Positions 10,240 to 61,158 of a stretch of DNA of 64,000 bases are shown piece by piece. This DNA is from Myxococcota bacterium (GTDB lineage Bacteria > Myxococcota_A > UBA9160 > UBA6930), in NCBI GenBank assembly GCA_965223415.1, contig OZ245002.1, positions 128,001 to 192,000 of the forward strand. Direction: 5' to 3'. The first letter of the stretch is position 1. Every line of letters begins with the position of its first letter. The notes beneath the pieces are model-generated. The model was given only the letters and a program-made list of their open reading frames with translations, was not told where the DNA came from and ran no database searches. Both the position numbers and the translations under genes were made by a program.

Positions 10240-10265
10240 ATCGGCCGGTCCGTCGCCCGGGTTGA
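10240..10265 (-). promoter_or_regulatory. sigma28-like promoter motif TCAAC-N15-GCCGAT
   Basis: One of eight copies of the motif; ATG follows 9 nt after the hexamer with no SD. Confidence 0.65.
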
Positions 10266-10300
10266 TCGCTGTCTTGCCTGCCGTGGATCCGGGGCGCGCC

Positions 10301-11137
10301 CTAGCGGCGAGCCGTGACGACCCAGCAGCCGGAGCCGAGCTGCACCGAGCCGCCTCCCCCCGCCACGTCGAAAGCGCTACGGACCGCACTCTCCACTTTG
10401 GCCCGCGTAGCCGGCTCGGCCCCGCTCTCGCGGAGGGCGGCCGCCACCGGCCCCACCTGCAGGAACATGGCGACCGCGTCGTCGAGGTCGCCGCCCCCGG
10501 GCGCCATGGCGACGTCCTCCGGACGCACGACGACCTCGCCGAAGCCCGCGCCCTCGAGGATGCCGCGCACCCGCTCGCCGTCGGCGAAGGAGAGCATGCC
10601 CGGAGCGCCCGGCGGCGGAGGCGGCGGCAGCTCCAGCAGGGGCGCCGCGGCCGCCATCGGCACGGTGATCCAGGGGTTGTCCTGGGGGCCGCGCCAGCAG
10701 ACGAAGGCCAGCCGGCCGCCGGGCCGCAAGGCGCGGTGGAAGTTCGCGAAGGCAGTGTCCGGATCCTCGAAGAACATCACGCCGAAGCGCGAGAACACCG
10801 CATCGAAGCTCTCCGGCTCGATGGTGACGACGGCTGCGTCGCCCACCTCCAACGTCACGTTGGCGGCGCCGTCTTCCCCGACCCGTTGGCGCGCGCGAGC
10901 GAGCATGGGCGCCGAGACGTCGAGCCCGTGCACGCGCCCCTCGGACCCGACCCGCGAGGCGAGGGCGAGGACGGTGTCGCCGCAGCCACAGCCCACGTCG
11001 AGCACCGCCTCGCCGGGCTTCGGGGCCAGGGCCTCGAGGGCGAGGCGGCCGTGGGGCTCGATCTGGCGGTCGAGCCGCTCCTGCCAGGTGACCCAGATCT
11101 CGCCATGGGCGTTCCAGAACTCGGCCTGCGTGGTCAT
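10301..11137 (-). CDS. Class I SAM-dependent methyltransferase
   Basis: VLDVGCGCG, GLDVSAPML, FDAVFSRFGVMFF, LRPGGRLAF. Confidence 0.92.
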   Translation of the reverse strand: MTTQAEFWNAHGEIWVTWQERLDRQIEPHGRLALEALAPKPGEAVLDVGCGCGDTVLALASRVGSEGRVHGLDVSAPMLARARQRVGEDGAANVTLEVGDAAVVTIEPESFDAVFSRFGVMFFEDPDTAFANFHRALRPGGRLAFVCWRGPQDNPWITVPMAAAAPLLELPPPPPPGAPGMLSFADGERVRGILEGAGFGEVVVRPEDVAMAPGGGDLDDAVAMFLQVGPVAAALRESGAEPATRAKVESAVRSAFDVAGGGGSVQLGSGCWVVTARR

Positions 11138-11163
11138 GGCCGCGAGCGTAGCGCGCGCGGCGA

Positions 11164-12813
11164 CTAGCCTCGGGGGCCAGGGCCCTGCGCGGACTTCGCC
11201 GCCGCATGGGCGGGATCGAGCCGGAGCGCTTCGGCGAACGCCGCCGTCGCCCGCGCTTCGTCTCCCAGCCGGCGAGCGCTCTCGCCGAGCCAGTAGTGGG
11301 CGTCGGCCCAGTGAGGCGAGAGCCGCACGGCGGCCTCCGCCTGGGGCAGGGCGGCGCGGGGGTCATCGGCGGCGAGGAGGGCCCGGACGTAGACGATGCG
11401 AGGGCGCGCCGAGCTCGGAAGCAGCTTCACCGAGGCATCGCCTTCCCGTCGCGCGGTCTCCACGTCGTCACGATCCAGGGCTTCCTTGGCGCGGATGTAG
11501 GCGGAGAGCGCGCGGACCCCGTCCTTCGGGTCGACGCCGGTCGCTTGGGGAGCGCGTTCGGGAATCACGTAGCCGAGGGAGCGCAGGCGTTCCCGGGTCT
11601 CGGGGTCGAGATCGCCCTGCTTCGCCGGGCGGCCGCCGCCTCGTGTCGCGACAACGAAGTCGGCGAGCGTGCTCGCCAGCTGCGTGTGGTCGGGCTCCGG
11701 ATCCTCCAGGAGGTTCCGCTGCTGGGCGGCGTCAGCGTAGAGCTCGGGGCGCGGCGCGTCCACGTAGAGATGGGTGCGGGAACGGGCCGCGTAGAGCGGT
11801 GCCCAGCCGAAGTCGAGCTGGGTCGCCAGGGTCTCGGCGTAGACGGCGTGAGGCTCCTCTCCGGCCGCGAGCAGATCGACTCCCCGCGCACTCGCGAGGG
11901 AGCCCGTGCCGAGCCGTCCGAGCAGCGTCGGCGCCACGTCGGCGAGGCTCCCGAGCCGCTCGGACACCTCGCCCTTGGGCACACCGGGCCCGGCCAGGAT
12001 CAACGGCACGTGCTGGGTCGCGTCGTACAGGGTGAGGGCGTGGCTCTTCTCGCCGTGCTCCCCGAGGCTCTCGCCGTGATCCGCCGTGACGGCGACCAGC
12101 GTCCGCGCCGACAGCTCCCGGGCACGCAGGTGGTCGAGCAGGCGTCCGACGGCCGCGTCCGTCGCAGCCACCTCGCCGAGGTAGGGCTCGTCGCGAAACG
12201 ACTCGGCCCACGGAGCCGGCGGCTCGTAGGGCGCGTGGGGGTCGAAGTAGTGGACCCACAGGAAGAAGGGCGCCTCTTCGTCCCGTTGCGCCTCGAGCCA
12301 GGCCAGGGCGCGCCCGGTCGTCACCGAGGCGGGCCGCTCCGCATAGAGCGCGCCGCGGTTGTCCCCGCCCGGCTCGTCGTACACGCCGAAGCCCTGGGCG
12401 ATGCCGAAGCGCGCCTCGAGCACCGCGGCACTGACGAAGGCAGCGCTGGTGTAGCCGTCGGCGCTGAGGCGCTCGGCCAGGGTCTCCACCGCGGCAGGCA
12501 GGACGAAGGCGCCGTTGTTGCGCACGCCGTGCTCGGGCGGAAGCAGGCCGGTCATGATCGTGCTGTGGGCGGGCATGGTCAGCGGAGCGGGGGAGTACAC
12601 CCGCGTGAAGCGGGTACCGTCCCGGGCCAGCCCGTCGAGCACCGGTGTCGGATGACCGGCCCCATAGCTCCCGAGCGCGTCGGCGCGGAGCGTATCGATG
12701 GTGACCAGCAGCAGGTTCGACGGAAGGTCGTCGGGCCGGACCTCGACGCGACCGCAGGCCGCTGGCGCAAGCGAGAGGAGGACGACCAGGAGCTGGATGG
12801 TGCGGTGCCGCAT
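11164..12813 (-). CDS. 'Sulfatase-like' hydrolase/transferase lipoprotein with short TPR tail (paralog 2)
   Basis: Signal ...LAPAAC; DTLRADA, LTMPAHSTIMTG, WVHYFDPH, TADHGE, RLRSLGY; alternative start at 12831. Confidence 0.85.
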   Translation of the reverse strand: MRHRTIQLLVVLLSLAPAACGRVEVRPDDLPSNLLLVTIDTLRADALGSYGAGHPTPVLDGLARDGTRFTRVYSPAPLTMPAHSTIMTGLLPPEHGVRNNGAFVLPAAVETLAERLSADGYTSAAFVSAAVLEARFGIAQGFGVYDEPGGDNRGALYAERPASVTTGRALAWLEAQRDEEAPFFLWVHYFDPHAPYEPPAPWAESFRDEPYLGEVAATDAAVGRLLDHLRARELSARTLVAVTADHGESLGEHGEKSHALTLYDATQHVPLILAGPGVPKGEVSERLGSLADVAPTLLGRLGTGSLASARGVDLLAAGEEPHAVYAETLATQLDFGWAPLYAARSRTHLYVDAPRPELYADAAQQRNLLEDPEPDHTQLASTLADFVVATRGGGRPAKQGDLDPETRERLRSLGYVIPERAPQATGVDPKDGVRALSAYIRAKEALDRDDVETARREGDASVKLLPSSARPRIVYVRALLAADDPRAALPQAEAAVRLSPHWADAHYWLGESARRLGDEARATAAFAEALRLDPAHAAAKSAQGPGPRG

Positions 12814-12829
12814 CGGCCTGCCTGCCCTC

Positions 12830-12854
12830 ATCGGCGGGCCGCGACCGGCCTTGA
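12830..12854 (-). promoter_or_regulatory. sigma28-like promoter motif TCAAG-N14-GCCGAT
   Basis: Lies in the short gap between paralogs 1 and 2. Confidence 0.6.
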
Positions 12855-12871
12855 GGTCGGGCGCGCTGCCC

Positions 12872-14977
12872 TCACGAGGCCCCTTCCCTCTCGACCCGCG
12901 CGAGGAGCGCCCGGGCTCCCTGGTGGCCCGGGTCCTTCTCCACCACCGAGCGGAGCACGCTCGCAGCGCGGTCGTATTCGGCCCGCGCCGCGTAGACCAT
13001 GGCGAGGCGAACCGCGAGGTCCGGGGCCTGGGCCTCGTCCGCGGCCGCCCGGGCATGGCGGGCGCTGGGAGCGGCGTCGCCCAGGCGCGCGTACTGGATG
13101 GCGAGCCGCATCTGGAGTCGCCCGTAGTCCGGGAAAGCCTCGGCGGCGCGACGATAGACCTCGAGGGCGCGCTCGTAGTCCCCTGTTCGCTCCCAGTATT
13201 CGCCGGCAAGCTCGTGGGCGTCGCCTCCCGCGGCGGGCAGCTCGACGATGCGGGCGGCCAGCGTCCCGGCCCGAGCGGCGTCCTGATGCATCAGCAGCCG
13301 GAGCGCCCCCGCGTGGGCGGCGGGGCTCTCGGGATCGCGCTCGATCGCCGCCTCGAAGGCCGCCAGCGCGGCGCCCGGATCCCGGCGCGCCTCGTGCACC
13401 TCGGCCAGGAACAGCCAGGGCTGGGCCCGATCCCCTGCGACCTCGGTGGCGCGCCGGGCCGGCGCCAGGGCCAGGTCCGGCTGCTCCGCGGCCAGGTGGA
13501 TTCGCGCGCGCAGGTCGAGCATGCGCGCGCTGTCGGGGAACCTCTCGAGCACCCGCCCGACCTTCTCCAGGGCCGAGTCGAGCCGGCCGTTCTGGAACTC
13601 GGCAGCGGCCTCCCAGCCCAGGCGCGCCCAGGGGAAGGCCTCCCGCGGGCTCGGGCCCGCCTGGGCGGCCTCGCGGGGCGGGGCGTCGGGCACCACGTAG
13701 CCCAGGGCTTCGACCTGGGCGCGGCGCGCGTCCGAGACCGGCGAGGGGCGCAGGGCCCGTTCGCGCTCCAGCACCCGGTCGAGGCGTGCGGCCGCGGCCT
13801 CGGCGAGCGAGCTCGCCTCGGGATCGTCGCCCGTGGCGAAGAGGTCGTGCAGCTGACCGGGATCCTCGGCCACGTCGTACAGCTCCGGATCCGGAGCCTG
13901 GATGTAGTGGTGGCTATCGCTCCGGATCGCGTAGGAGGCGCTCCAGCCGTGGTCGAGCCAGGGCGCCAGGGATTCCGCGTAGGCCCATCCCGTTTCACCG
14001 GGCTGCCCGCCCTTCACGACCGACGAGAGATCCGGCACGTCGGTCTCGGCGAGCCCGGGGACGCCGGCCAGCGCGAGCAGGGTCGGCGCGATGCTGGCGT
14101 TCGAGACCACCGGAGCCACACGCCCCGGACGAGCGCCCGGTCCGGCCACGACCCACGGAACGAGCAGGTCGGCGTCGTAGACCAGATAGCTGTGGCCGGG
14201 CTCGCCGTGCTCCCCCAGGCCTTCACCGTGGTCGGAGGTGACCGAGATCCAGACGTCGTCGCCCCCCGGACGCTCGCCCACCGCGGCCAGCAGGCGCCCG
14301 AGCTGGTGATCCACGAAGGCGATCTCACCGGAGTACGGATCGTCGCCGAAGCGCGCGTCGAAGGGAGGGGGCGGCTGGTAGGCGACGTGGGGATCGTAGT
14401 AGTGCACCCAGAGGAAGAAGGGCCCGTCGGTCCCCTCCAGCCACTCGAGGGCGCGATCGGTCACCTCGTCCGCTCGCCGCTCCGGGAAGCCGATGGAGCT
14501 CGCCGCGTCGGCGAAGCCGGCTTCGTCGTAGCGATCGAATCCGCGATCCAGGCCGAACTCCGACGCCAGGACCGACGCACCGACGACGGCCGCCGTGCTC
14601 CAGCCACGTCCTTGGAGCTCGCTGGCGAGCGTCGGGATCTCGGCGGGAAGCCGGAACACCGCGTTGTGTCGCACGCCGTGACTCGGCGGGTAGCGCCCGG
14701 TCAGGATCGAGGCGTGGGAGGGAAGCGTGAGCGGCGCCGTCGCCACCGCCGCTTCGAAGACCACACCACGAGCGGCGAGCGCGTCCAGGTTCGGCGTCGC
14801 GCCGGTCGTGGCACCGTACGCACCGACGTGGTCGGCGCGCAGGGTGTCGATCGTGACGAGCAGGAACGACGGGGGGACCGGCCCGGATCCGCCGATGGGG
14901 CCCGAGTCACACGCCCCGAGAGCCAGCGAGGCCGCGACGAGGACCACCCATCGATGCTTCGATCCACCCGGTTGCAT
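12872..14977 (-). CDS. 'Sulfatase-like' hydrolase/transferase lipoprotein with C-terminal TPRs (paralog 1)
   Basis: Lipobox LALGAC; DTLRADH, LTLPSHASILTG, WVHYYDPH, TSDHGE, VEALGY, TPR-like repeats. Confidence 0.85.
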   Translation of the reverse strand: MQPGGSKHRWVVLVAASLALGACDSGPIGGSGPVPPSFLLVTIDTLRADHVGAYGATTGATPNLDALAARGVVFEAAVATAPLTLPSHASILTGRYPPSHGVRHNAVFRLPAEIPTLASELQGRGWSTAAVVGASVLASEFGLDRGFDRYDEAGFADAASSIGFPERRADEVTDRALEWLEGTDGPFFLWVHYYDPHVAYQPPPPFDARFGDDPYSGEIAFVDHQLGRLLAAVGERPGGDDVWISVTSDHGEGLGEHGEPGHSYLVYDADLLVPWVVAGPGARPGRVAPVVSNASIAPTLLALAGVPGLAETDVPDLSSVVKGGQPGETGWAYAESLAPWLDHGWSASYAIRSDSHHYIQAPDPELYDVAEDPGQLHDLFATGDDPEASSLAEAAAARLDRVLERERALRPSPVSDARRAQVEALGYVVPDAPPREAAQAGPSPREAFPWARLGWEAAAEFQNGRLDSALEKVGRVLERFPDSARMLDLRARIHLAAEQPDLALAPARRATEVAGDRAQPWLFLAEVHEARRDPGAALAAFEAAIERDPESPAAHAGALRLLMHQDAARAGTLAARIVELPAAGGDAHELAGEYWERTGDYERALEVYRRAAEAFPDYGRLQMRLAIQYARLGDAAPSARHARAAADEAQAPDLAVRLAMVYAARAEYDRAASVLRSVVEKDPGHQGARALLARVEREGAS

Positions 14978-14987
14978 CCAAGACGGG

Positions 14988-15013
14988 ATCGGCCTCCCGC
15001 CCCTTCGAGTTGA
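14988..15013 (-). promoter_or_regulatory. sigma28-like promoter motif TCAAC-N15-GCCGAT
   Basis: Lies in the 49-nt pilD-paralog 1 gap; ATG 10 nt downstream. Confidence 0.65.
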
Positions 15014-15026
15014 ATGCGGGCCGGGC

Positions 15027-15893
15027 CTAGGGGAGCAGTCCCACGAACCAGACCGGCGGTGCCAGCACCACGGCGAGGGCCGCCAGGACGATCGCCGGGC
15101 CGAAGCCGAAGGGGACGTCCGCCGCCCGCCGCATCACGGCTGCGACGCCGCCCCAGACCAGCCCGACCAGCGCGGCGCCGATGATCGTCAGGACCACACC
15201 CGCCGGGCCCACGCCGGCGCCGACCAGCGCCATGAGCTTGACGTCGCCGAAGCCGAGGCCCGGGAACCAGGTCCAGTAGTCGACGCTGCCGAGGACGGGA
15301 AAGTCCTCTCCCTCGTCGGGCCAGTGGGGAAAGCGCCGCCCCATCGCCGCCGAGACCCGCGCGTGGCCGAAGCCGACGATCCACAGGAAGCCCGCACCGA
15401 TCGCCGCCCCGAGGAGCGAATCCGCGAGGGCCGCGAGGTAGGGCGCGCCGGCGAGGGCCGTGGCTGCCGGCACCGCCGCGAGCGCGAACAGGGCACCGCC
15501 GAGGGACAGGCCGTCGGGAATGAACTGGTGGTCGAAGTCGATCAGTGCCGCCGCGACGAGGATGGCGGCGATCACCAACCACACCGGGAGCAGAGGTGTC
15601 GGCCCCAGCCGCAGAGCGAGGGTCGCGAAGAGCAGACCCGTTGCCAGCTCCACCAGCGGGTAGCGGGCCGAGATCCCCCGGCCGCAGTGCCGGCAGCGGC
15701 CCCGCAGGATCAGGTAGGAGAGCACGGGAACGTTGTCCCAGGCGGCGATCGTTCGCCGGCAGCCCGGGCAGCGTGAACGGGGGGTGACCACCGACTCCTC
15801 GAGGGGAACCCGGTGGATCACGACGTTCAGGAAGGAGCCCACGATCAGCCCCAGCACGAAGGCGCCGAGCGCGAGGAGGTGGAGAAGCGTCAC
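15027..15893 (-). CDS. pilD: Prepilin peptidase / N-methyltransferase
   Basis: [52 protein letters not shown]-like C-terminus. Confidence 0.95.
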
Positions 15894-15918
15894 GGAGTTC
15901 CAGGTGCCGGGCGCCGGG

Positions 15919-16698
15919 TCAGCGGAAATCGCGGCGTTCGAAGACCAGCACCGCGATGGTCAGGAACGCAACGCACCAGGCGGCTCCCATGACGGTAGCG
16001 AAGGCCACGTCGGAAGCCGCGATCGGCAGGCCGTGCACGGCCTCGATGGTCCAGTTGAACGACTCGAGATCCGGAAGCAGGCGGTGCAGCCACAACGTCG
16101 CTTCCCTCACGAGCTCGGAGCCCGAGGCATCGCCGATCGCGCGGAGGTCCCGGGTCATGTGCCCGATCAGGTAGAAGCCCACGCTGTAGCAGCTGGCCAG
16201 GAAGGGCGTGGCGAAGCACGAGAAGAGCGTGGCGATGGAGACCAGCACGGCCAGCTCCATGCCGACGGCTCCCAGGGCCACCAGGGTGGAGGAGCCGATC
16301 GGAGCCTCCGTGAGCACGGACACACCGAGGAAGCCCGCGGACATGACGAGGAGCATCAGCCACAGCGTCGCCAGCAGCCCGAGGTACTTGCCGACCAGGA
16401 AGTCCGCCCTGAACACCGGTTTCGAGAGGATGGTGAAGATGGTGCGCCGCTCCACCTCCCGATGGACCAGCCCCACACCGATGAAGACGGCGATCGCCGC
16501 CCCGAACAGCCGGATCGCGGCGAGGCCGACGTCCTGGAGAATGCGCTCCCGTTCGACGTAGGAGAGGCTCGCGAGGAGCACGCTCATGCCGATCAGCAGC
16601 ATCGCGAAGAAGAGCAGGACGTAGAGGACCTTGTTACGCACGGCGTCGCGCACCGTGTGGCGAGCGATCACCGCGATCCTGGAGAGCCTCACCCTCAT
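15919..16698 (-). CDS. ABC transporter permease (Myxococcus PilI-like)
   Basis: [47 protein letters not shown]; about 6 hydrophobic segments; ATG overlaps the ATPase stop. Confidence 0.85.
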
Positions 16699-17636
16699 CG
16701 CTCTCCCTCCCCGATGGCGGCCATGAACAGGTCCTCCAGGCCTCCGCGCAGGGGCATGGCCGAGAGCACGTGGGCGCCGTCGGCGACGATCTCGCCGAGC
16801 ACCTGGTCCACGCGCTTGCTGGCGACCCGCACCTCGATGCGGCCGCCCCGGCCCCGCAGCTCGGCTCCGTGCTCCGTCTCGAGACGCTCTGCGAGCCCGG
16901 CCGAGAGGCCCATCGCGATGATGTCGACCAGCCCGCCGTCGGCCGCACGCAGCTCCTGTGCGCTGGCCTGGTGGACGATGCGACCGCCCACGATGATCGC
17001 GATGCGGTCGCAGATCATCTCGACGTCCGAGAGGATGTGGGTGTTCATGAAGATCGTCTTCCCCTCCTCGTGGAGGTGGAGGATCAGGTCGCGGATCTCC
17101 TTGCGGCCCACCGGGTCGAGGCCGCTCATCGGCTCGTCCAGGAACAAAACCTCCGGGTCGTGGACGAGGGCCTGGGCGATGCCGATGCGCTGCAGCATGC
17201 CCTTCGAGTAAGTGCGCAGACGCTGGCCCCCGGCGTGACCCAGACCGATCTGCTCGAGCAGCTCCTGGGTGCGGGCGCGGGCCCGCGCCGGGGAGAGCCC
17301 GCACAGCCTCGAGTAGAACTCCAGGGTCTCGCGCCCGGTCAGGAAGTCATAGAAGTAGGGGCCCTCGGGCAGGAAGCCCACGTGGCGGCGGAACGCGACT
17401 TCCGACACGTCGTGCCCGAGGATCCGCGCGCACCCGCCGGTCGGACGGATCAGACCCATCAGGATCTTGAGCGTCGTGGTCTTCCCGGCGCCATTCGGTC
17501 CGATGAAGCCGAAGATCTCGCCCTTGTGCACCTCCAGGGCAATGCCTTCGAGCACCCGCTTGCGGCGAAGGCCGAAGCCGGGACGGAAGTCCTTCGTCAG
17601 GCCCTCGATCTCGATGATAGGCTGCCCCTCACTCAC
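16695..17636 (-). CDS. ABC transporter ATP-binding protein (Myxococcus PilH-like)
   Basis: [29 protein letters not shown]; lies between pilins and pilD. Confidence 0.92.
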
Positions 17637-18546
17637 GGTTGCTGTCTTCCCCCCTTGCCTTCATCGCCTCCACACGCTGGCGATTCGTCAGGTCGATCTG
17701 CGGCTCGTAGCGGTGCCCGAGCCTGGCCGAGACGATCACGCCCGCCGCGTCGAGCGCCCAGCCCTCGCCGAACGGCTCGGCGGGGAGCGCCCGCAGCACC
17801 GGCGCCGATCCGGAGGCCAGCTCCTCGACCCGCTCGATGTCCCGGCCGTGGCGTTCCCGGAAGGCGGCGCGAGCGCGGTCCAGCAGGCGGGCCCGACGCT
17901 CCGTCTCGATCTCCTTGAGCGTCCACTCGTAGATCTGGCGGGTGCGGGTATCCGCCTCGTCGGTACCCCGCAGCAGGGTCGCCACGAAGGCCGCCGCTGC
18001 CGCGAGCCCCTCCCGATCGCTGCGCAGGCGGGCCGCAAGGCTTCCCAGGTAGCGGGGAGCGTCTTCGAGGTGGACGGCCCCGGCCAGGATGTCCGCCGCG
18101 CGCTCATTCTCGCCCAGGTAGAAGAAGTGGTTGAAGGCGAGGTAGAAGCGGTTCCGCCACTCGCCCGGATGGGCCTCGATCCCCCGCTCGAGGAGCTCGT
18201 TCGCCTTGCGCACCGCCGCCAGGTCGTCGGTCATCCACAGGGCGGCGAAGCGGTAGGGATGGTCCACCCGGGGGTTGAGGTCGGTCACCAGGTCCACGAG
18301 AGCGCCGATCCGATGGCTCTGCCCGACCGGGCCTCCTCGGCCTCCGCCGAGCTGGACCGCCTGGAGCCAGTAGGCGTCCGCCAGCAGGGCGTCGAAGCCC
18401 GCCGAGAACAGCTTGGCCGTGGTGGCATCGGGGAGGTAGCCCTCACCGCGGTTCGTCCGGGGCTCCGCCGGGAGCTGGGCATGGCTCGCGCCGATGGCCG
18501 TGCCCGCGGCCAACAGCAGGACCAGTCTGGATCCCCAACCCACCAT
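17629..18546 (-). CDS. Pilus-associated TPR-like protein (Myxococcus PilG-like)
   Basis: N-terminal hydrophobic segment, LADAYWLQAVQ, VTDLNP, LLERG motifs; syntenic position after pilA. Confidence 0.7.
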   Translation of the reverse strand: MVGWGSRLVLLLAAGTAIGASHAQLPAEPRTNRGEGYLPDATTAKLFSAGFDALLADAYWLQAVQLGGGRGGPVGQSHRIGALVDLVTDLNPRVDHPYRFAALWMTDDLAAVRKANELLERGIEAHPGEWRNRFYLAFNHFFYLGENERAADILAGAVHLEDAPRYLGSLAARLRSDREGLAAAAAFVATLLRGTDEADTRTRQIYEWTLKEIETERRARLLDRARAAFRERHGRDIERVEELASGSAPVLRALPAEPFGEGWALDAAGVIVSARLGHRYEPQIDLTNRQRVEAMKARGEDSNRE

Positions 18547-18580
18547 CCGATGCTCGTCCCCTCCTCCGGTAGGACGCTCT

Positions 18581-18605
18581 ATCGGCCAGGCACGGCGCCT
18601 GCTGA
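18581..18605 (-). promoter_or_regulatory. sigma28-like promoter motif TCAGC-N14-GCCGAT(A)
   Basis: Lies between the pilin-2 stop and the GGAGGAGG of the pilG-like gene. Confidence 0.55.
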
Positions 18606-18611
18606 AGGGAC

Positions 18612-19166
18612 TCAGAACTCCGTGCGGCCGTCGAGGGCGGTGCACGGCCCGACGGTGTCGAAGGCACCGAGCGGGTTGGCGGGATCGAAGACACCGACGC
18701 CGGTGCAGCCCGGAGCGATGGTGGAGGCCTGCCCGAGCGCGGCTCCGGCGGCGGGGTGGACGTAGCCCAGGTCGGAGAAGACCAGGTTGTTGTCCAGGTC
18801 CCCCAACGCCGCGGCCGTGAAGGCGGTGTTGGCTGCGTTGGTGTCCACGCCGTAGGTGAAGTGGACTGCGCCTTCGGGGATGAAGCCGATGAGATCGAAG
18901 CTCACGATGCCGCCACCGGCCCAGACGCGCTTGCCGAGAGTGGGCGCGCCTGCCGGGGTCGCAGGCGCCGCCACGTAGACGCCGAACTCGGAGAAGTAGG
19001 CGGCCTCGGCCGTGGCGATCGCCTTCAGGTTCCCGCGCGCCTCACTGATGCGGCTTCGCAGCTGGAACTGACGGAAGTTGGAGATGGCCGTGGCGGCGAG
19101 GACGCCGATGATCGCCACCACGATCATCAGCTCGATCAGGGTGAATGCGTTTCGTCGCCGGGTCAT
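18612..19166 (-). CDS. Type IVa pilin, second paralog
   Basis: MTRRRNA|FTLIELMIVVAIIGVLAATAISNF...; SD GGAAGG; two C-terminal Cys. Confidence 0.9.
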   Translation of the reverse strand: MTRRRNAFTLIELMIVVAIIGVLAATAISNFRQFQLRSRISEARGNLKAIATAEAAYFSEFGVYVAAPATPAGAPTLGKRVWAGGGIVSFDLIGFIPEGAVHFTYGVDTNAANTAFTAAALGDLDNNLVFSDLGYVHPAAGAALGQASTIAPGCTGVGVFDPANPLGAFDTVGPCTALDGRTEF

Positions 19167-19227
19167 GGTCGAGTCCTTCCTGGCCTTCCAGCGGAGGAAC
19201 ACTGCAGGCTCTCGGACCGGTGAACAC

Positions 19228-19461: not shown

Positions 19462-20025
19462 CTAGAACTGGCTCTGACCGTCGAGCTGGGCGCAGCCACC
19501 GACCGCGTTCAGCACGTCGAGGGCCGTGGTCACGGCGTTGTACACGCCGGTCGCCGCGCAGCCCGCGCCGCTGTAGGCCGGCACCGTCGAAGCAGCGGCC
19601 GCACCCGGAACCGGGTGGATGTACGCGAAGTCGGAGGTCGTGGTGTCGCCGTCCAGGTCGCCGGCGGCCACGGCCATGTAGTCGGCGTTGTTCGTGCCGA
19701 CGGCGTACGAGTAGAACACCGAGCCTTCCGGCGCCCAACCCATGATCTCGAAGCCGTGGGTGGTGGCCGGGGTCCAGACCTGCTTGCTGGTCAGGAGGGC
19801 ACCGGGGTAGTCGGTCGCGCCGACGTAGGTGCCGTACTCGGCGAAGTAGCTCTCCTCCGCGGTGCGGATGGCGGCCAGGTTGGTCCGGGCCTCACCGGTC
19901 TTCGAGCGGAGCTGGAAGCGGAGGAAGTTGGGAATGGCGATGGCCGCCAGGATCCCGATGATGGCGACGACGATCATCAGCTCGATGAGCGTGAAGCCGC
20001 GCTTGCGGTTGAGAAGCTTTCGCAT
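19462..20025 (-). CDS. pilA: Type IVa major pilin
   Basis: MRKLLNRKRG|FTLIELMIVVAIIGILAAIAIPNF; strong SD AAGGAG; sigma54 promoter and own terminator. Confidence 0.93.
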   Translation of the reverse strand: MRKLLNRKRGFTLIELMIVVAIIGILAAIAIPNFLRFQLRSKTGEARTNLAAIRTAEESYFAEYGTYVGATDYPGALLTSKQVWTPATTHGFEIMGWAPEGSVFYSYAVGTNNADYMAVAAGDLDGDTTTSDFAYIHPVPGAAAASTVPAYSGAGCAATGVYNAVTTALDVLNAVGGCAQLDGQSQF

Positions 20026-20144: not shown

Positions 20145-20370
20145 GCGCTCCGGCGTACGTCACGGATCGGCAGCTCGCGGCGCAACCTGTAGGCGTGAAG
20201 CCTCGAGCGGGCCGCGCGACCCCTTCAACTCGGGTGTTCACTGGGCGACAGAAGTGACGGAAACCGTCGTCACCAGCGACGAAATCCGTCACCCGCCCGG
20301 GTGCAACACCCGCCGAGGCCACAGCCGTTGACACCCGCCGGAGGGGGGGTACGGTTGCGCCCCTTCTAGC

Positions 20371-21720: not shown

Positions 21721-22005
21721 CTACCGACCCTCGTCCCCGCCCCGGCCGTGGCGGGACTGGACCACCTGCCAGAGCTCCTTGCGCAGCTCTTCCTTGAAGA
21801 CCGGATCGGCCTGGTCGGGGCCCAGATCTCCCTCGAGGAACTCCTGCAGCTCCTCCATGGAGAACTCGGCTGCCAGCTGTCGGTTCACGTTCTGCTCCCG
21901 AAGGTCCTGTCGATCGGCGGTCCTGCGAGAGGGGCCACTCGAAGCACCCCGCCCGAAGCGCCGTCTCCAGCGCGCACGAAGCCGTGAGGCCAGACGCGGA
22001 ATCAA
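21721..22005 (-). CDS. Small hypothetical protein downstream of the ECF pair (94 aa from TTG 22005, or 55 aa from GTG 21888)
   Basis: Open frame ending ...FSMEELQEFLEGDLGPDQADPVFKEELRKELWQVV...; GC3-rich codons in the 3' half; TTG overlaps the sigma stop (TTGA). Confidence 0.6.
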   Translation of the reverse strand: MIPRLASRLRARWRRRFGRGASSGPSRRTADRQDLREQNVNRQLAAEFSMEELQEFLEGDLGPDQADPVFKEELRKELWQVVQSRHGRGGDEGR

Positions 22006-22709
22006 GTCACTCTCGTCGTCTCTTGTGCTTCCGCGTCCAGCAACAACTGCTTCACCCGATAGAGACCGGACCGGATGGCGTCTCCGGAACGGTCCGTACG
22101 CTCCGAGATCTCCCGGATCGTCAAATTGTGCACGTGGCGCAGAAAGAAGGCCTCCGCCTGCCAGCTCGAGACGCCTTGCAACCTCTCCTCGATGGCGCGG
22201 GCGTAGCGATCCATCTCGAGGTGATCCTCCGGCGTGCAGGTCCAGGTCGCCGAGTCCGACAACAACAGGTCGGGACCGGCCTGCTCGACCCGCTCGCCGT
22301 GGATGCGGTGGCGCCGCAGGTGGTTGTAGACGGTGTTCTTGGCGACACCGTAGACCCAGGCCAACGGCGCCGACCGGCCCGACCAGCCTTCCGCGGAACG
22401 GAAGACGACGGTGAAGGTCTCCTGGGTCAGCTCCTCGGCGTCCGCATGGTTGCGGACGCGCAGGTAGACGAAGCTGTAGATGCGCTGGAAGTAGCGATCG
22501 TAGAGCACGTTGAAGTGCTCCTCGCTCCCTCGGCACACCTCCTGGAAGAGCGCCTCGTCCGTCCAGGTGGAGGGCGAGCCAGGGTGGCGCCGCGCGCTGT
22601 CGCGCGTGTGCGAACGATCGACCAGGGCCAACGCGGACTCCTCGCGTTCGCCCTTCCCAGGTGATGCGATGGAGACCCGGTCTGGACCCCCATCCAGCGT
22701 CTCCGTCAA
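22002..22709 (-). CDS. ECF-family RNA polymerase sigma factor (second of pair)
   Basis: FNVLYDRYFQRIYSF...DAEELTQETF...WVYGVAKN; region 4 LTIREISERTDRSGDAIRSGLYR; start uncertain. Confidence 0.9.
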   Translation of the reverse strand: MTETLDGGPDRVSIASPGKGEREESALALVDRSHTRDSARRHPGSPSTWTDEALFQEVCRGSEEHFNVLYDRYFQRIYSFVYLRVRNHADAEELTQETFTVVFRSAEGWSGRSAPLAWVYGVAKNTVYNHLRRHRIHGERVEQAGPDLLLSDSATWTCTPEDHLEMDRYARAIEERLQGVSSWQAEAFFLRHVHNLTIREISERTDRSGDAIRSGLYRVKQLLLDAEAQETTRVT

Positions 22710-22766
22710 GGAAGTGGTCGGAGGAGGCCGTACGTGGCAGGAAAAAACCTGCGGACCCGAAGATAG

Positions 22767-22796
22767 GACACCCCTCGGGGAGTCCCGAGGGGTGTC
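22767..22796. repeat. 13-bp perfect inverted repeat (hairpin) between the two ECF genes
   Basis: GACACCCCTCGGG-GAGT-CCCGAGGGGTGTC. Confidence 0.7.
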
Positions 22797-22829
22797 GGCG
22801 AGACGAGATCCGGTGCGGTGGGAGCGCGC

Positions 22830-23528
22830 TCAGACCTGGAGGATCTGCTCCAGCCCCGGCGCCGCCTGGGCGATGGCCCGGCGCATCCGGTAGAGGTTGG
22901 CCTTCACCGCGTCCTCGGACTTCCCGAGGCTCCCGGCGATCGAGCGGATGGACTGCCGGCGCAGGTGCTTCAGGTGGAAGATGCGCCGCTGCAGGGGCGT
23001 GAGCTGCTCCTCGATCACCCTTTCGCAGTGGGCGAGCATGCGGCGGGCGTCGACGGCCCGGTCCGTGGGAGCCTCGGAGGCCGGGAGCTCCATCGCGGCC
23101 GGCGCGTCGAGGGATTCCAGCCGCGGACGAACGCCTCGGAAGCGCCGGTTCACCTTGTTGCGGGTGATTCCGAAGATCCAGACCAGCAGGCTCGAGTTGC
23201 CCGCGTAGGTATGCAGGGCCTTGAAGACGGTGACGAAGACCTCCTGGGTCACGTCCTCGGCCTCGCCGGAATCCCGCAGCCGCTTCAGGGCGAAGCGGTA
23301 GACGCGGGGGAAGTAGGCCTTGTACAGGAGGTCGAAGTGGGCACGGCTGCCGCCGAGAATCTCCTTGACCAGCTCCGCATCGCTCTCCCAGGGGGAGTCG
23401 TTGCGGCGGGACTTGCGGCGGGGCGGGGTAGCGGCCTTGGCGCGGCTCCCCACGCCCTTGGACGCAGCCGGCTCGCGCGAGCTGCGGGTGGACGGGGCGG
23501 CCGTGGGGCGGAGGGATCGGCTCAGCAC
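22830..23528 (-). CDS. ECF-family RNA polymerase sigma factor (first of pair)
   Basis: GTG at 23528 behind AGGGAG; FDLLYKAYFPRVYRF...EAEDVTQEVF...WIFGITRN; region 4 SIRSIAGSLGKSEDAVKANLYR. Confidence 0.9.
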   Translation of the reverse strand: MLSRSLRPTAAPSTRSSREPAASKGVGSRAKAATPPRRKSRRNDSPWESDAELVKEILGGSRAHFDLLYKAYFPRVYRFALKRLRDSGEAEDVTQEVFVTVFKALHTYAGNSSLLVWIFGITRNKVNRRFRGVRPRLESLDAPAAMELPASEAPTDRAVDARRMLAHCERVIEEQLTPLQRRIFHLKHLRRQSIRSIAGSLGKSEDAVKANLYRMRRAIAQAAPGLEQILQV

Positions 23529-29951: not shown

Positions 29952-30767
29952 TCAGCGGAGGCGATCCAGGTACTCCTCCGATCGCTTCCCCCATGGTCCG
30001 CTCGGCTTGGAGGCCGCGGACGCCGTCAGATACTCGAGAGCCAGCTCCCGGTCCCCAGTCGCGATGTAGATCTCGGCGATCCGGAAGTTCGCCTCCGCCT
30101 CCGCGAGCGGTCCCGGGTCGAGCTCCACGACCCGTTCGAAGCGCGCGATCGCCTTCTCGTGACGGCCGCGCTCGGCTTCGATGATGCCGAGGTTGAGAAT
30201 CGGACGCCAGTAGCCGGTGTGGTACTCCGTCGCCATCTCCAGGGACTCCATGGCCCGTCGCAGCTGACCGAGCTTGTAGTAGGCCCAGCCCTGATTCGTG
30301 AGCGCCGCCCACGGAAGCGGGAAGGTCGGGTCGTTCACCAGGGACTCGGCCATGTGAATGGCCTCGCCGTAGCGCTCGAGCTCGATGTAGATCGCGGAAA
30401 GGGTGAGCTTGGCCTGCTGGAAGTTCGGAGCCTCGGCCAGGGCCTTCAGGAGGTGGCGCTCGGCGTCGGCGAACAGCCCCTTGCGGCGGTAGGAGTCGGC
30501 GAGGGCGAGCTGGGTCCACTTGTCCTCGGGCCGCAGCTCCTCCGCGATGCGGAGCTCGCGGATCGCGAGGGCCACCCGACCCTCGCGCAGGTGGCCGGTG
30601 CCGACGTTGTAGTGGGAGGCCGCGCGCCGCTCGATCTTCATCTTCTCGGCGAGCTTCGTGTCGGCACGGCTCGAGCGGGAGCCGCCGGGGGTCGCGCACC
30701 CCACGAGGAGCACCAGGGCGACCAGGCTCAGCACGCGGAAGTGGGAGCTTCGAGGGTTCGTCGTCAC
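29952..30767 (-). CDS. tgl: TPR lipoprotein, Tgl/PilF-type type IV pilus pilotin
   Basis: GTG behind GAAGGAG, lipobox LVGC, about 6 TPRs, DPTFPLPWAALTNQGWAYY motif; precedes RodZ-like gene and recO. Confidence 0.72.
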   Translation of the reverse strand: MTTNPRSSHFRVLSLVALVLLVGCATPGGSRSSRADTKLAEKMKIERRAASHYNVGTGHLREGRVALAIRELRIAEELRPEDKWTQLALADSYRRKGLFADAERHLLKALAEAPNFQQAKLTLSAIYIELERYGEAIHMAESLVNDPTFPLPWAALTNQGWAYYKLGQLRRAMESLEMATEYHTGYWRPILNLGIIEAERGRHEKAIARFERVVELDPGPLAEAEANFRIAEIYIATGDRELALEYLTASAASKPSGPWGKRSEEYLDRLR

Positions 30768-30780
30768 GGGATCGTCTCCT

Positions 30781-31629
30781 TCAGAAGGAAGAGAGGATGC
30801 GGGCCAGCCAGTCACGGCGTTCTTCGTCGCTCACGGGCTTTCGTTTCTTGACCAGGCGCAGCTTGCCAAGGGCCGCCTTGCCCAGCCGGCGGCGGGTGCG
30901 TTGACGCCGCTCGCCCTCGGGCATCGGGTCGGCAGCTGCGAAGGCTTCGCTCGGTGCCGGCAGGTCGAACTCGAGATCGGCATCCGCCTCGAGGGGCGGA
31001 TCGGCCTCGCCGAGCGGTGTCGCGCCCGCGGGAGGGCCGATGCGGAACTTGCTCAGCTCGGTCGCCGGCGGGGAAGGAGCCTCGCCCTCCGGAGCACCGG
31101 CGGGCTCCGCGGCGGCCAGGGCATCCTCCACCAACGAGGTGAGCTGGGAGGTATCCGGCGGCTCGATCTCCGGCTCGGGGACCACCGCCTCGACCAGCAG
31201 GAACTCGTCCTGGATCTTGTCGGTGCCGGCGTCGTCCGCAGGCGCAGGCTCGCTGGGCGGCGGTGCCAGGTCTCCCATCAGCTCGGCCCAGATACCGTAG
31301 GCGCGCTCGGCGTCGCCGGCCGCGAGCTCGTCGTCGTCGAACAGGAAGCCCATGCCCTCGCCGAAGGCCATCGCCGCGTCGACGCAGCTCGCGGCGTCCG
31401 GCACGTCACCGTCGGGAGCGAAGTGCAGCACCTGGCCGCTCTTGAGGGAGCGCACGCTCAGGGTGACGTCGAGGGGGCCGTCGAGGACGGCGTGGACGAC
31501 GAGCGCCGCCCGGGCCGGAGCCACGGGGAAGTCCTCGGTGCGAACCACCGGTGTGTTGAGGGAGAGCTGCAGGCTCCGCAGGTGCTCGGGGCGCAGCTGG
31601 AGCGGCGCGTTGCGGCGCGCGAAGAACAT
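30781..31629 (-). CDS. Hypothetical protein resembling the myxobacterial ORF that precedes tgl
   Basis: SLNTPVV, AMAFGEGMGFLFDD, acidic Pro-rich linker, C-terminal LARILSSF; family resemblance recalled, not searched. Confidence 0.55.
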   Translation of the reverse strand: MFFARRNAPLQLRPEHLRSLQLSLNTPVVRTEDFPVAPARAALVVHAVLDGPLDVTLSVRSLKSGQVLHFAPDGDVPDAASCVDAAMAFGEGMGFLFDDDELAAGDAERAYGIWAELMGDLAPPPSEPAPADDAGTDKIQDEFLLVEAVVPEPEIEPPDTSQLTSLVEDALAAAEPAGAPEGEAPSPPATELSKFRIGPPAGATPLGEADPPLEADADLEFDLPAPSEAFAAADPMPEGERRQRTRRRLGKAALGKLRLVKKRKPVSDEERRDWLARILSSF

Positions 31630-31637: not shown

Positions 31638-31663
31638 ATCGGTCCCCGCCGAGCCCCACTTGA
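31638..31663 (-). promoter_or_regulatory. sigma28-like promoter motif TCAAG-N15-ACCGAT(A)
   Basis: ATG 8 nt downstream with no SD; heads the tgl operon. Confidence 0.65.
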
Positions 31664-41526: not shown

Positions 41527-41552
41527 ATCGGCGCTGCGGCCAAGCCCCTTGA
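41527..41552 (-). promoter_or_regulatory. sigma28-like promoter motif TCAAG-N15-GCCGAT
   Basis: 33 nt upstream of the DGC start codon. Confidence 0.65.
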
Positions 41553-50804: not shown

Positions 50805-51794
50805 TCAGAGCGTCCGCAATTCCGCTTTCGCTTCCTTGTCGTTGGGATCGAGACGGACAGCCGTCTCCAGCTCACGTTTGGCGTTGGCCGTGAGATCGGC
50901 CGCTTTGTAGATCTGCCCGAGCACCCGGTGGTACTCGCCGCTCTCCGGCTCCAGCTCGCAAGCAGAGGAAGCCAGCTCCTTCGCCTTGCGCAGGTCTCCG
51001 ATCGCCTGCCAGGCGATCTTGGCCGCCCGGAAGGCCAGCTCGGCGTCGAATGGGCGGAAGTGGCACGCCTCCTCGAGCGCCTCGAAGGCCTCCTTGTAGT
51101 CGCGGAGGTCGAGGGCGGCGTCCGCCGTGCGCGTCAGGTGCTTGGCCCGCTCTTCGTGGGCCTTGCGCTGCACCTTCACGAACTCCTCGCGGTAGACCTC
51201 GTTGGAGGGGTCGAAGGCCATGGCGAGGCGCACCGAGCCCGCCGCCTCGAGCCACCGCTCGCTGCGGAAGGCGCTCATGCCGGACTCGAAGAAGGTCTTG
51301 GCCTTCTGCTTGCGCTCCTGCTTGACCTTGTGGTGGCCGTGGAGGCCGGACATGCGCCGCCGCAGCCGGCGCGCGGCCTCGGTGCTCGACATGCGCGGCT
51401 TGGCGGGCTCGGCGGAATCGGCGGGGGGCCCGGCGGACGGCACTCCCGACGGCTTCGGCGCCGCCTTCGCGCGGGCCTTCTCGCCCCGCTGCACCTCCGC
51501 ACGGGTGGCCGGATCCGACAGCAGCTCGTAGGCCTCGAGCAGCTTCTTGAAGCAGGTCTCCACCAGGGGCTCGAAGTCGCCCAGGTTCTTGCGGAAGTAG
51601 CGATCCGGGTGGAAGCGCTTGGACTTCTGGAAGTAGGCCTTCTTGATCGCGCGGTCGTCCGCGTCGACGGCCACGCCCAGGAGCTCGTGGTACGGGCGAT
51701 CGAGGCCGTTCGCGAACTCGATCAGCTCTTCCTGGACCTTGGGGTCCAGATCGAGCGACGAATCCACCTCGACGTCGAACGAGCCGGTCTTCAT
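50805..51794 (-). CDS. J-domain protein with C-terminal TPRs
   Basis: PYHELLGV...IKKAYFQKSKRFHPD...EAYELLSDP; TPR helices; start uncertain. Confidence 0.88.
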   Translation of the reverse strand: MKTGSFDVEVDSSLDLDPKVQEELIEFANGLDRPYHELLGVAVDADDRAIKKAYFQKSKRFHPDRYFRKNLGDFEPLVETCFKKLLEAYELLSDPATRAEVQRGEKARAKAAPKPSGVPSAGPPADSAEPAKPRMSSTEAARRLRRRMSGLHGHHKVKQERKQKAKTFFESGMSAFRSERWLEAAGSVRLAMAFDPSNEVYREEFVKVQRKAHEERAKHLTRTADAALDLRDYKEAFEALEEACHFRPFDAELAFRAAKIAWQAIGDLRKAKELASSACELEPESGEYHRVLGQIYKAADLTANAKRELETAVRLDPNDKEAKAELRTL

Positions 51795-51916: not shown

Positions 51917-51942
51917 ATCGGCGGGGCATGGGGGGAAGCTGA
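51917..51942 (-). promoter_or_regulatory. sigma28-like promoter motif TCAGC-N15-GCCGAT
   Basis: Lies in the argB-J-protein gap. Confidence 0.55.
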
Positions 51943-52896: not shown

Positions 52897-52897
52897 G

Positions 52898-54373: not shown

Positions 54374-54386
54374 CGATCGCCCCCCT

Positions 54387-55781: not shown

Positions 55782-56314
55782 GGCAGGGTCACCACGGAGA
55801 TCTGGTCGTTGGTGTAGATGCAGATCTCCGCCGCGATCTCGAGGGCGCGGCGAGCCACCGCCTCCGCGCCGACGTCGGGACGATCGGCGAGGGCGCGGGC
55901 CGCGGCCAGGGCGTAGGCGCCGCCGGAGCCGATGGCGGCGATGCCGTCGTCGGGCTCGATCACCTCGCCGTTGCCAGACACCACCAGCACGCCGCTGGCG
56001 TCGCCGACCAGGAGCATCGCCTCGAGGCGACGCAGCATGCGGTCGGTGCGCCACTCCCGGGCGAGCTCCACCGCCGCCCGGCGCACATTGCCGGGATGGG
56101 CCTCGAGCTTGGCCTCGAGGCGCTCGGAGAGCGCCAGGGCGTCGGCCACTCCGCCGGCGAAGCCGAAGACGGCGCGCCGCTCGGCCGCCTCGCGCACCTT
56201 CTGGGCGCCGTGCTTCATGATCGTGTCGCCGACGGTCACCTGCCCGTCGGAGGCCATGGCGATGCAGCCGTCCTTGACGACGCCGATCACGGTGGTCGAG
56301 CGGGTCTCGCTCAT
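55778..56314 (-). CDS. hslV: ATP-dependent protease peptidase subunit
   Basis: [37 protein letters not shown]. Confidence 0.97.
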
Positions 56315-58571: not shown

Positions 58572-58649
58572 TGGCCCTCCCGCGCTGCCCCGCGCGTGAC
58601 GCCGGAATGTAGCCGCCGCGGAAGGTGACGCCCCGAGGGGCGCCGGCGC

Positions 58650-59753: not shown

Positions 59754-59798
59754 GGGCGAGGGCTCCCGGGACCGGGCGGGCAGAGCCTACCGAAACGA

Positions 59799-59828
59799 GA
59801 AGAGCCGGCCCGTCCGGGCCGGCTCTTC
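59799..59828 (-). terminator. Hairpin / probable terminator after the tsaP-like gene
   Basis: GAAGAGCCGGCCC-N4-GGGCCGGCTCTTC (13 bp) followed by TCGTTT on the minus strand. Confidence 0.6.
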
Positions 59829-59851
59829 CTTCGTTCGATCTGGGAGCGTGA

Positions 59852-61075
59852 CTACGGGTTCACGTCGGGCGAGCCGCGGAAGCGGTCGCCACGGGAGAGC
59901 TCCGTGATGGTGTGGGTGACGACGGCCACCGACGCCTCGTCCTGCACGTCCACCACGAGCAGCTTCGCCACCACGTGGTCCGGCAGCGCCACGCGCTCCG
60001 CCTTGACGGCGTCGATACCGTCGTTCATCGGGCGGTATACCTCGAGGGGACTGCCGACGGCGAGGCCGTGCTGACGACCCCGGTCGAGGTAGACCACGTC
60101 GGTGCTGCCCATCTCGAGGCGCCGCGACGGCGTGTGGACCACCAGGCCCTCCACCTGCGGCATCGGGCCGACCTCGATCTCCGCCGTGCGCGGCCGGCGC
60201 GGCAGCAGGCCGTCGCCGCGACGGACCTCGGAACGGGACAGGCGGATCGTGGCCCAGGAGCTCTCGGGGTGGACCTCCGTCACCTCGAGCCAGCCCAGGA
60301 ACTCGGTGTGGTAGCCGAACAGCACGCCGTCTTCCGGCGACGACACGCGACCGGCGGTGCGGAAGATGTCGAACTGCTCGCCCACCTGGGTCTCACCGGC
60401 CCCGAGGCCGATGACGACCTGGTCGTGGTCCTGGAGCCAGACGCGCTGGAGCGGGCTGTCGACGATCGCCGCGGCGCGCTCGTGCTGCTCGACGGTCACG
60501 AAGCCCGTCGACTGGATCTCGCTGTAGCGATAGGTCGGCGGGGTCTCGAGGCCCTCCATGCCGTCCTGCAGGGCGGCGGGCATCCCGCCCTCGCCCAGGA
60601 GGGCGGCGGCCTCGGCATCGGACACCTTGCGGATCTCGTGGGGCGTGATCCAGAGGTGGTCGCCGGGGAAGATGCGGTGGGGATTCTCGATCTCCCCATT
60701 GTCCTTCCAGATCGACGGCCACACCCAGGGCGTACCCAGGTAGGCGTCCGAGATGTCCCACAGCGTGTCGCCGCGCTGCACCGTGTGCAGGCGACCCGTG
60801 CGACCGTTCTCGTCTTCGCCGAGCGGCCCGAGCTCCACGGCGGAGCGACCGGACTCGGGCGTGACTTCGGTCACTTCGTGGTCGGCCTCGGTCGCGGTCG
60901 CGTCCTCCGCGGCCACGGCTTCGGACGCCGCGGCGGCCTCCGGGGCCATCGCTTCGGGCGCGGCTGCGGCCTCGGCAGTGGCCATGGCTTCGGGCGCGGT
61001 CGCCGCGTCCTCCGCCAGAGCGGGCGCCGCCAGCAGGCTCGAGATCAGGGTCAGGGCGAGCTTCGAGGACCTCAT
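59852..61075 (-). CDS. tsaP: LysM peptidoglycan-binding protein, TsaP-like (T4P secretin-associated)
   Basis: Signal peptide, Ala/Glu linker, HTVQRGDTLWDIS...PWVWPSIW...IENPHRIFPGD, beta-rich C-domain; directly upstream of dprA as in known tsaP loci. Confidence 0.72.
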   Translation of the reverse strand: MRSSKLALTLISSLLAAPALAEDAATAPEAMATAEAAAAPEAMAPEAAAASEAVAAEDATATEADHEVTEVTPESGRSAVELGPLGEDENGRTGRLHTVQRGDTLWDISDAYLGTPWVWPSIWKDNGEIENPHRIFPGDHLWITPHEIRKVSDAEAAALLGEGGMPAALQDGMEGLETPPTYRYSEIQSTGFVTVEQHERAAAIVDSPLQRVWLQDHDQVVIGLGAGETQVGEQFDIFRTAGRVSSPEDGVLFGYHTEFLGWLEVTEVHPESSWATIRLSRSEVRRGDGLLPRRPRTAEIEVGPMPQVEGLVVHTPSRRLEMGSTDVVYLDRGRQHGLAVGSPLEVYRPMNDGIDAVKAERVALPDHVVAKLLVVDVQDEASVAVVTHTITELSRGDRFRGSPDVNP

Positions 61076-61132
61076 GGTTCCCTCCGACCGTCCCCTCGAG
61101 CGCAACAGGCCCGGAGGACGCTGGGGTCTTCC

Positions 61133-61158
61133 ATCGGCCGGGCAGCCCGCGGCCTTGA
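61133..61158 (-). promoter_or_regulatory. sigma28-like promoter motif TCAAG-N15-GCCGAT
   Basis: Lies in the gap upstream of the tsaP-like gene. Confidence 0.65.

Follow-up and report, generated by a model that had tools for sequence, protein, structure and literature searches.

A class-wide set of sigma-28-type promoter-like sites with a single candidate sigma factor, apparently uncoupled from flagellin, in a Myxococcota lineage

The DNA considered here, hereafter the window, is a stretch of 64,000 nucleotides from a Myxococcota bacterium (contig OZ245002.1, positions 128,001 to 192,000; G000:C1:128001-192000, where G000 is this genome and C1 its single 5.83-Mb contig). It contains eight copies of a bipartite motif, which we interpret, with a probability of about 0.8, as promoters read by a single FliA/WhiG-family sigma factor that is uncoupled, if not totally, from flagellin in this class and has sigma-54 upstream of it. 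As judged from sequence, the regulon is real and class-wide. In the model that we propose, an NtrC-type activator encoded next to the sigma-28 gene would, together with sigma-54, turn on that gene, an order of events that we infer. The sigma-28 factor would in turn activate some 180 units. These would comprise type IVa pilus operons (for the motor, the secretin and accessory proteins), a cluster for an MSHA-like pilus, genes for cell polarity and a chemosensory operon, as well as many enzymes and receptors of cyclic di-GMP (c-di-GMP) and cyclic GMP-AMP (cGAMP). Sigma-54 would directly drive pilA and the flagellin and other flagellar genes.

The eight sites (Table 1) are exactly where a preliminary description of the window had placed them. 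They are the only matches to the pattern in the window (eight on the minus strand, none on the plus strand), and each is intergenic and oriented into the next gene. The spacers, previously counted as six of 15 nt and two of 14 nt, need a small correction. Because the pilG-proximal site scores better as TTCAG-N15-GCCGAT (17.6 bits) than when read at 18581-18605 with a spacer of 14 (12.7 bits), a spacer of 15 is common to seven of the eight, which leaves 12830-12854 as the sole genuine case of 14. Three near-leaderless starts are present as described, with the ATG 9, 10 and 8 nt past the hexamer at 10240, 14988 and 31638, respectively. A suspected ninth, weaker site at 63742-63768 was not retained, as it needs spacer 16 and scores 10.9 bits, below our threshold of 12. 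None of recO, mdh, argG and trmFO is among the 181 genome-wide hits described below.

Genome-wide, using our own self-trained gene caller (5267 genes, from which all gene starts are taken), we found 64 intergenic matches to the pattern, compared with a mean of 4.8 and a maximum of 9 in 20 third-order Markov simulations of the genome. In promoter position, 46 matches have spacer 15 and 14 have spacer 14, with 0-4 at each of the 14 other spacers between 8 and 23; as most of the spacer-14 matches read TTCAG-N15-GCCGAT, a single register dominates. A weight matrix iterated over 3694 upstream gaps returned 181 sites of at least 12 bits at spacer 15 and 35 at spacer 14, whereas spacers 11-13 and 16-19 gave 7-17. 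Its consensus, cTCAAG-N15-GCCGAT(g/a), bears out the earlier assignment to a sigma-28 signature, the sequence of the boxes and their spacing, T(C/T)(A/C)AG-N15-(G)CCGAT, being in register with published sigma-28 and WhiG consensuses, whereas an E. coli-style TAAA -35 element gave 0-1 matches at any spacer. The window sites are thus members of a larger collection, with some 180 promoter-like sites across the genome.

For 55 of the 181 sites the called start lies 8-12 nt past the hexamer. Counted independently of the gene caller, ATG occurs 7, 20, 13, 12 and 5 times at offsets 8, 9, 10, 11 and 12 (57 positions in total) and 0-6 times at each other offset between 3 and 24. Since a Shine-Dalgarno-like word precedes only 7 of the 55 near starts, as compared with 50 of 107 distant ones, we infer that transcripts from the near-start sites are leaderless.

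A FliA/WhiG-type sigma factor, the existence of which had been postulated from the motif, is indeed encoded in the genome. One protein exceeds the TIGR02479 cut-off (278.9 versus 189.6 bits), and ten weaker matches fall under it. The protein keeps residues R74, D81, R84 and R91 and the ESRV-Q stretch of E. coli FliA, which have a role in promoter reading. Its gene is flanked by a PP2C phosphatase gene and by a response regulator gene which, by similarity, we take to be romR-like. The 80 closest genomic relatives of the sigma stem mostly from metagenome-assembled genomes of Myxococcota or Deltaproteobacteria, isolate UBA9160 included; flhA, flhF and flhG were found in none of the 80 loci, some of which are short. 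In a tree of 38 rows the sigmas of this class form one clade (100/100) apart from the FliA proteins adjoining flhG, with the backbone unresolved. A separate observation concerns family f37, in which five genomes (L201-L205, L217-L221) carry both an flhG-adjacent FliA and a stand-alone paralog that is 43-46% identical to the sigma studied here.

A sigma-54 site stands ahead of the sigma gene in each of the 79 scorable loci, compared with 0-2 for shifted controls. In 68 of 72 loci the immediate upstream neighbour of the sigma gene encodes an NtrC-type activator. A strict sigma-54 expression caught only 30 of the 79 because the -12 box reads GTGC or CTGC. Autoregulation was considered and discarded, as a sigma-28-type self-promoter occurs in 1 of the 79 loci. 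These findings modify the two-sigma pilus hierarchy suggested previously. Both types of site are present, and pilA is preceded by the anticipated sigma-54 site together with a marginal sigma-28-type site. With a sigma-54 site in front of the sigma gene in 79/79 loci, however, the arrangement looks serial, from sigma-54 to sigma-28.

Conservation of the sites across relatives (off-spacer controls yielded 0-4 in the large sets) differs from target to target. The site is retained ahead of the pilM unit in 29/30 cases (counting this genome), the miss having no upstream DNA, ahead of the romR-like gene in 64/69, and ahead of the Hypr GGDEF gene in 27/28 orthologous upstream regions (again counting this genome; 2 of 30 skipped). 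Among the relatives tested it precedes the tgl-like operon in 5/5 and the tsaP-like gene in 4/5, and the pilG-like unit has a site of at least 12 bits in 1/5. Sixteen of 34 sulfatase-like copies have a site, chiefly the pilD-proximal one. The J-protein/DnaK operon has the least conserved site (8 of 29 orthologs, 1 skipped, with 6 of the 8 in this genus). The expectation that orthologs would share the motif therefore holds strongly for the Hypr and tgl-like genes, moderately for the pilD-adjacent threonine enzyme and weakly for the DnaK module.

Presence of the sites also follows presence of the sigma. Of the 41 genomes searched, 35 yielded the sigma, 33 (all sigma-bearing) yielded pilM, and 12 yielded flagellin. 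With spacer 18 as in-phase control, sigma-bearing genomes have a median of 25 sites at spacer 15 versus 3 at spacer 18; the excess is seen in 34 of these 35 genomes and is absent from five of the six genomes without the sigma (spacer 15/18 counts: 5/5, 1/1, 15/3, 1/2, 2/3 and 2/3). Outside the class, a pilM site of at least 12 bits within 700 nt was found in 4/26 cases, which is similar to off-spacer controls. The pilM sites of the five f37 genomes with a stand-alone paralog score 10.4-14.4 bits, which is no more than suggestive. Counts across 151 genomes of the phylum had only a reversed-pattern control, which does not keep codon phase, and are interpreted within the class alone.

Other readings of the motif are conceivable. 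It is very improbable that it represents a transcription-factor operator or a dispersed repeat rather than a promoter, since the spacers between the boxes have no sequence in common, the sense orientation is favoured (58 genes versus 21 antisense, the latter count including divergent gaps), and a maximum of ATG counts 9 nt past the hexamer is what transcription starting there would produce. A further antisense control was contaminated by divergent promoters. Somewhat less remote, albeit still unlikely, is the idea that the promoters are read by another sigma factor, either of group 3 or of the extracytoplasmic function (ECF) type such as the two encoded at 22002-23528. The ten weaker TIGR02479 matches would be compatible with it, as would genome G016, which retains 15 sites at spacer 15 (3 at spacer 18) and in which neither a FliA/WhiG sigma nor pilM was found. 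Against it stand the equality of sequence and spacing with the published sigma-28 promoters and the background level of sites in the other five sigma-less genomes. Moreover, relatives have the sigma and pilM genes within some 50 kb of each other, so that a single gap in the assembly could account for the absence of both from G016.

Similarly unlikely is an ordinary FliA regulon for flagella and chemotaxis which, like that of Bdellovibrio, has simply grown and continues to include flagellin. The genome is flagellated, its cheY-cheA operon and a gene for a methyl-accepting chemotaxis protein have sites, and three divergent flagellin-like loci of three relatives (L111, L112, L117) show a relaxed sigma-28 site but none of the sigma-54 type. 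The flagellar genes of this genome (flagellin, flhA, fliG), whose presence or absence had been left to be checked, map at 2.12-2.16 Mb, which is 2.4 Mb from the sigma gene, and csrA and fliW are also present. Yet the upstream regions of fliC, flgB and flgF carry sigma-54 sites and lack CCGAT; the sigma-54 site of fliC is perfect, and the 330 nt ahead of that gene contain no CCGAT. No fliA follows flhG in this genome, the place being taken by an HD-type gene, and flgJ and flgN have no flgM between them. FlgM (PF04316) was found in 0/41 genomes, with controls matched in 3/14, a count that could miss a short divergent FlgM. Twelve genomes yielded 25 flagellin loci, of which 14 (in 11 genomes) have a sigma-54 motif, three a relaxed sigma-28 site, and eight neither. 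No flagellin was found in 23 of the 35 sigma-bearing genomes, and the sigma clade is separate from the flhG-adjacent FliAs. The classical flagellar FliA regulon, with its cluster linkage, FlgM and sigma-28 flagellin promoter, thus appears to be missing here on all three counts, and the sigma of this class seems uncoupled from flagellin, albeit not totally.

Besides G016 and the three flagellin-like loci, several observations weigh against promoters read by a flagellin-independent sigma-28. One of the 54 genes in the flagellar cluster, and one gene just beyond it, score above threshold. G033 carries the sigma and shows no raw excess of sites (18 versus 21). The five genomes with background counts measure just 2.1-2.8 Mb and belong to three genera of one family, so that, being reduced and related, they are not independent tests; because they also lack pilM, the J protein, the sulfatase-like proteins and the Hypr protein, loss of sites may have followed loss of targets. 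Training of the matrix used spacer 15 and so favours that spacer, which leaves the untrained spacer sweep as the fair control, and start positions depend on the self-made gene caller. Finally, many of the predicted targets have no evident link to pili.

Target annotation relies on profile scans of 53 proteins and of 48 window proteins, which cover a minority of the 181 targets. Sites precede pilB (above profile cut-off), which heads a unit with pilT-pilC-pilS-pilR, a small gene heading the pilM-to-pilQ unit, two minor-pilin units, a PilT paralog, RomY, mglB (below profile cut-off) with a following GTPase gene, the cheY-cheA operon and the chemotaxis receptor gene. A direct site is found for 12 of 26 PilZ genes (p 1e-11; one Pfam match has no called gene) and a site for 8 of 14 GGDEF genes identified by motif (p 4e-9), compared with 181 of all 5267 genes; seven of 12 prepilin genes have one directly or via their operon. 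A search for c-di-GMP-I riboswitches gave no match, with the controls equally silent. Hence the core of the proposal that a sigma28-type factor drives pilus genes (sites, a matching sigma, type IV pilus targets) is upheld, and the regulon is predicted to be broader, with about 180 sites. Because it is genome-wide and broad, a site alone is weak evidence that an uncharacterised gene serves pilus or surface biology, as had been suggested.

Three further loci deserve mention. In addition to its type IVa genes, the genome has a complete MSHA-like pilus cluster (L123, G000:C1:4793243-4805459; MshL above cut-off) with two sites. A strong site precedes the gene for a fusion of a KaiC-like ATPase with a receiver domain (G000:C1:5137814-5140126). 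The type II secretion-like operon L134 (G000:C1:4516629-4529549), recognized by eye from translations, has pseudopilin genes without a site.

Table 1. Predicted sites and genes in the window (window positions) and the sigma gene outside it
Position	Strand	Feature	Score or profile
8131..14977	-	three sulfatase-fold TPR proteins (8131-10230, 11164-12813, 12872-14977), methyltransferase gene among them	PF00884
10240..10265	-	TCAAC-N15-GCCGAT; ATG of sulfatase-like TPR gene 9 nt on	15.1 bits
12830..12854	-	TCAAG-N14-GCCGAT; precedes second sulfatase-like gene	20.5 bits at spacer 14
14988..15013	-	TCAAC-N15-GCCGAT; precedes pilD-proximal sulfatase-like gene; conserved one of the trio	
15027..18546	-	prepilin peptidase pilD, ABC permease, ABC ATPase, pilG-like gene (no family hit)	
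18581..18606	-	TTCAG-N15-GCCGAT; precedes pilG-like/ABC ATPase/permease/pilD unit	17.6 bits
18612..20025	-	two prepilin genes (18612-19166, 19462-20025)	PF07963
20128..20143	-	sigma-54 site TGGCAC-N5-TTGCT; precedes pilA	
20166..20191	-	additional weak site of sigma-28 type, TACAG-N15-GCCGAT; upstream of pilA sigma-54 site	12.9 bits, marginally above threshold
29952..31629	-	uncharacterised gene and Tgl/PilW-like TPR lipoprotein	NF033762, E 1.4e-25, under its cut-off
31638..31663	-	TCAAG-N15-ACCGAT; 8 nt ahead of tgl-like operon ATG	21.1 bits
40102..41493	-	REC-GGDEF protein, Hypr signature GHLVGS, predicted cGAMP synthase	
41527..41552	-	TCAAG-N15-GCCGAT; precedes Hypr GGDEF gene	19.6 bits
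49179..51794	-	J-domain/TPR protein (50805-51794) and 533-aa DnaK paralog	
51917..51942	-	TCAGC-N15-GCCGAT; precedes J-domain/TPR and lid-less DnaK operon	15.6 bits
59852..61075	-	LysM and FlgT_C-like protein	
61133..61158	-	TCAAG-N15-GCCGAT; precedes LysM (tsaP-like) gene	19.0 bits
G000:C1:4603455-4604222		single FliA/WhiG-family sigma gene (outside window)	TIGR02479

Of the window genes, that of the GGDEF protein had been described as encoding a REC-GAF-GGDEF diguanylate cyclase. Its GGDEF motif is intact, the protein reads NDRHGHLVGS where PleD has NDTFGHDIGD, and the best PDB match, 6d9m, has GHLVGS including the serine in common with it. At the position of PleD D344 the 30 Hypr orthologs have serine in 26 cases and threonine in 3, with 1 unread, and among 14 GGDEF proteins found in the genome the window protein is the only one of Hypr type. 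According to PMC9140294, Ser or Thr at this position confers cGAMP synthesis, and gliding of Bdellovibrio needs cGAMP synthesis. Because the window protein carries the Hypr serine, cGAMP is more likely to be its product than c-di-GMP.

The sulfatase-fold proteins have the sequence T-x-P-x-H at the nucleophile position in 34/34 homologous copies, whereas formylglycine sulfatases use Cys/Ser-x-P-x-R. As threonine replaces the cysteine or serine, the three proteins are, by their predicted active site, not formylglycine sulfatases. Given the nucleophile threonine and the position beside pilD, our guess is that they may act as phosphoester transferases or hydrolases on pilin or the cell surface. 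A PDB search with the domain returned only distant sulfatase-fold matches. One site per sulfatase-like gene, as originally noted, is correct for this genome; in three congeners the site is confined to the copy next to pilD. That copy is closest to the distal one of this genome (8131-10230; 70-76%), and the different order of paralogs suggests rearrangement or conversion.

The DnaK paralog had rightly been called lid-less: it ends before the lid, and the HSP70 profile matched positions 1-520 of 599. It adjoins the J protein in 29/29 loci. A second DnaK paralog of 677 aa with an acidic non-standard tail, also preceded by a site, is encoded at G000:C1:17556-19589. In M. xanthus the DnaK-like proteins SglK and StkA affect social motility and exopolysaccharides (PMC8265645), and a link of the DnaK module to pili is by analogy plausible, though not new. 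As for the remaining genes, the pilG-like gene is presumed to be such from its position, and we take the LysM and FlgT_C-like protein to be tsaP-like. The second prepilin gene (18612-19166) lies directly behind pilA and has its own sigma-54-like TGGC-N7-TTGC site about 75 nt upstream. Two tandem ECF-like sigma genes (22002-22631 and 22830-23528, minus strand), the upstream one with a strict sigma-54 site, and a single open reading frame in which RpiB is fused to serine hydroxymethyltransferase (2973-4676, minus strand) are also present. Elsewhere in the genome, two transposase-like open reading frames with the same N-terminus are located near the sigma locus (G000:C1:4607972) and near flagellin (2137907).

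Control of pili by sigma-28 as such is already known from Bdellovibrio and Rubrobacter. FliA of Bdellovibrio bacteriovorus (Bd3318) governs a global attack-phase regulon, in which TTAAG-N16-CCGATA was found in 92 of 140 mapped promoters (PMC3627812), and activates a (Tad) pilus operon in E. coli, pilA being described as not FliA-regulated (PMC5430801). It resembles the factor studied here in promoter geometry, in its global regulon and in its many non-flagellar or surface targets. By contrast, it still drives flagellin and its pilus target is of type IVb, whereas here polarity genes and those of a type IVa machine are the predicted targets, the site ahead of flagellin is of the sigma-54 type, and FlgM was not found. 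WhiG2 of Actinobacteria, and Rubrobacter WhiG in particular, is a sigma-28 encoded apart from a flagellar cluster; the latter targets genes for type IV pili and for diguanylate cyclases and phosphodiesterases, with the same consensus and spacing (XT(C/A)AX-N16-GCCGA; PMC13595943). WhiG2 belongs to another phylum and is held by the c-di-GMP-responsive anti-sigma RsiG, and the accessible text of that paper describes no sigma-54 input; the host studied here, unlike the WhiG2 setting, is still flagellated. From the enteric FliA-FlgM hierarchy, whose E. coli FliA is 41.5% identical to this sigma, our system differs in the absence of cluster linkage, in that no FlgM was found in the 41 genomes, in that flagellin is not a predicted target, and in the near-absence of a self-promoter (1/79).

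The Hypr synthases GacA/GSU1658 and Bd0367 share Ser/Thr at PleD D344 with 29/30 orthologs of the window protein; the available text of PMC9140294 describes no sigma-28 control of such a gene, which is predicted here. Myxococcus xanthus SigF (MXAN_0785) is an alternative sigma needed for pilus-driven motility, but nothing in the available part of PMC9548883 ties it to sigma-28, and orthology with the sigma studied here is unsupported, SigF being listed with regions 2 and 4 only. The literature searched, which included few subscription papers, contained no description of this regulon in Myxococcota, no sigma-54-to-sigma-28 link with flagellin outside the regulon, and no Hypr gene under sigma-28.

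It is tempting, although rather doubtful, to speculate further that the class has swapped textbook roles. Sigma-54 would run the whole flagellum and switch on a FlgM-free sigma-28 as a master switch for surface life. The latter would also co-ordinate the pilus motor, the Mgl/Rom polarity module, the cGAMP synthase and every second PilZ or GGDEF gene, with leaderless mRNAs in roughly one case out of three, and would be gated by an anti-sigma of unknown identity or by its own second messengers. The pilD-adjacent threonine enzyme would then be a new pilin-decorating transferase.

Our study offers, for a large lineage without cultured members, a conserved predicted regulon in which uncharacterised genes can be ranked by site retention. 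After Bdellovibrio and Rubrobacter it would be the third setting where sigma-28 runs pili and, in the literature searched, the first in which flagellin seems to have dropped out of the regulon although the cell has kept its flagella. The study also predicts that cGAMP synthesis is tied to pilus gene expression.

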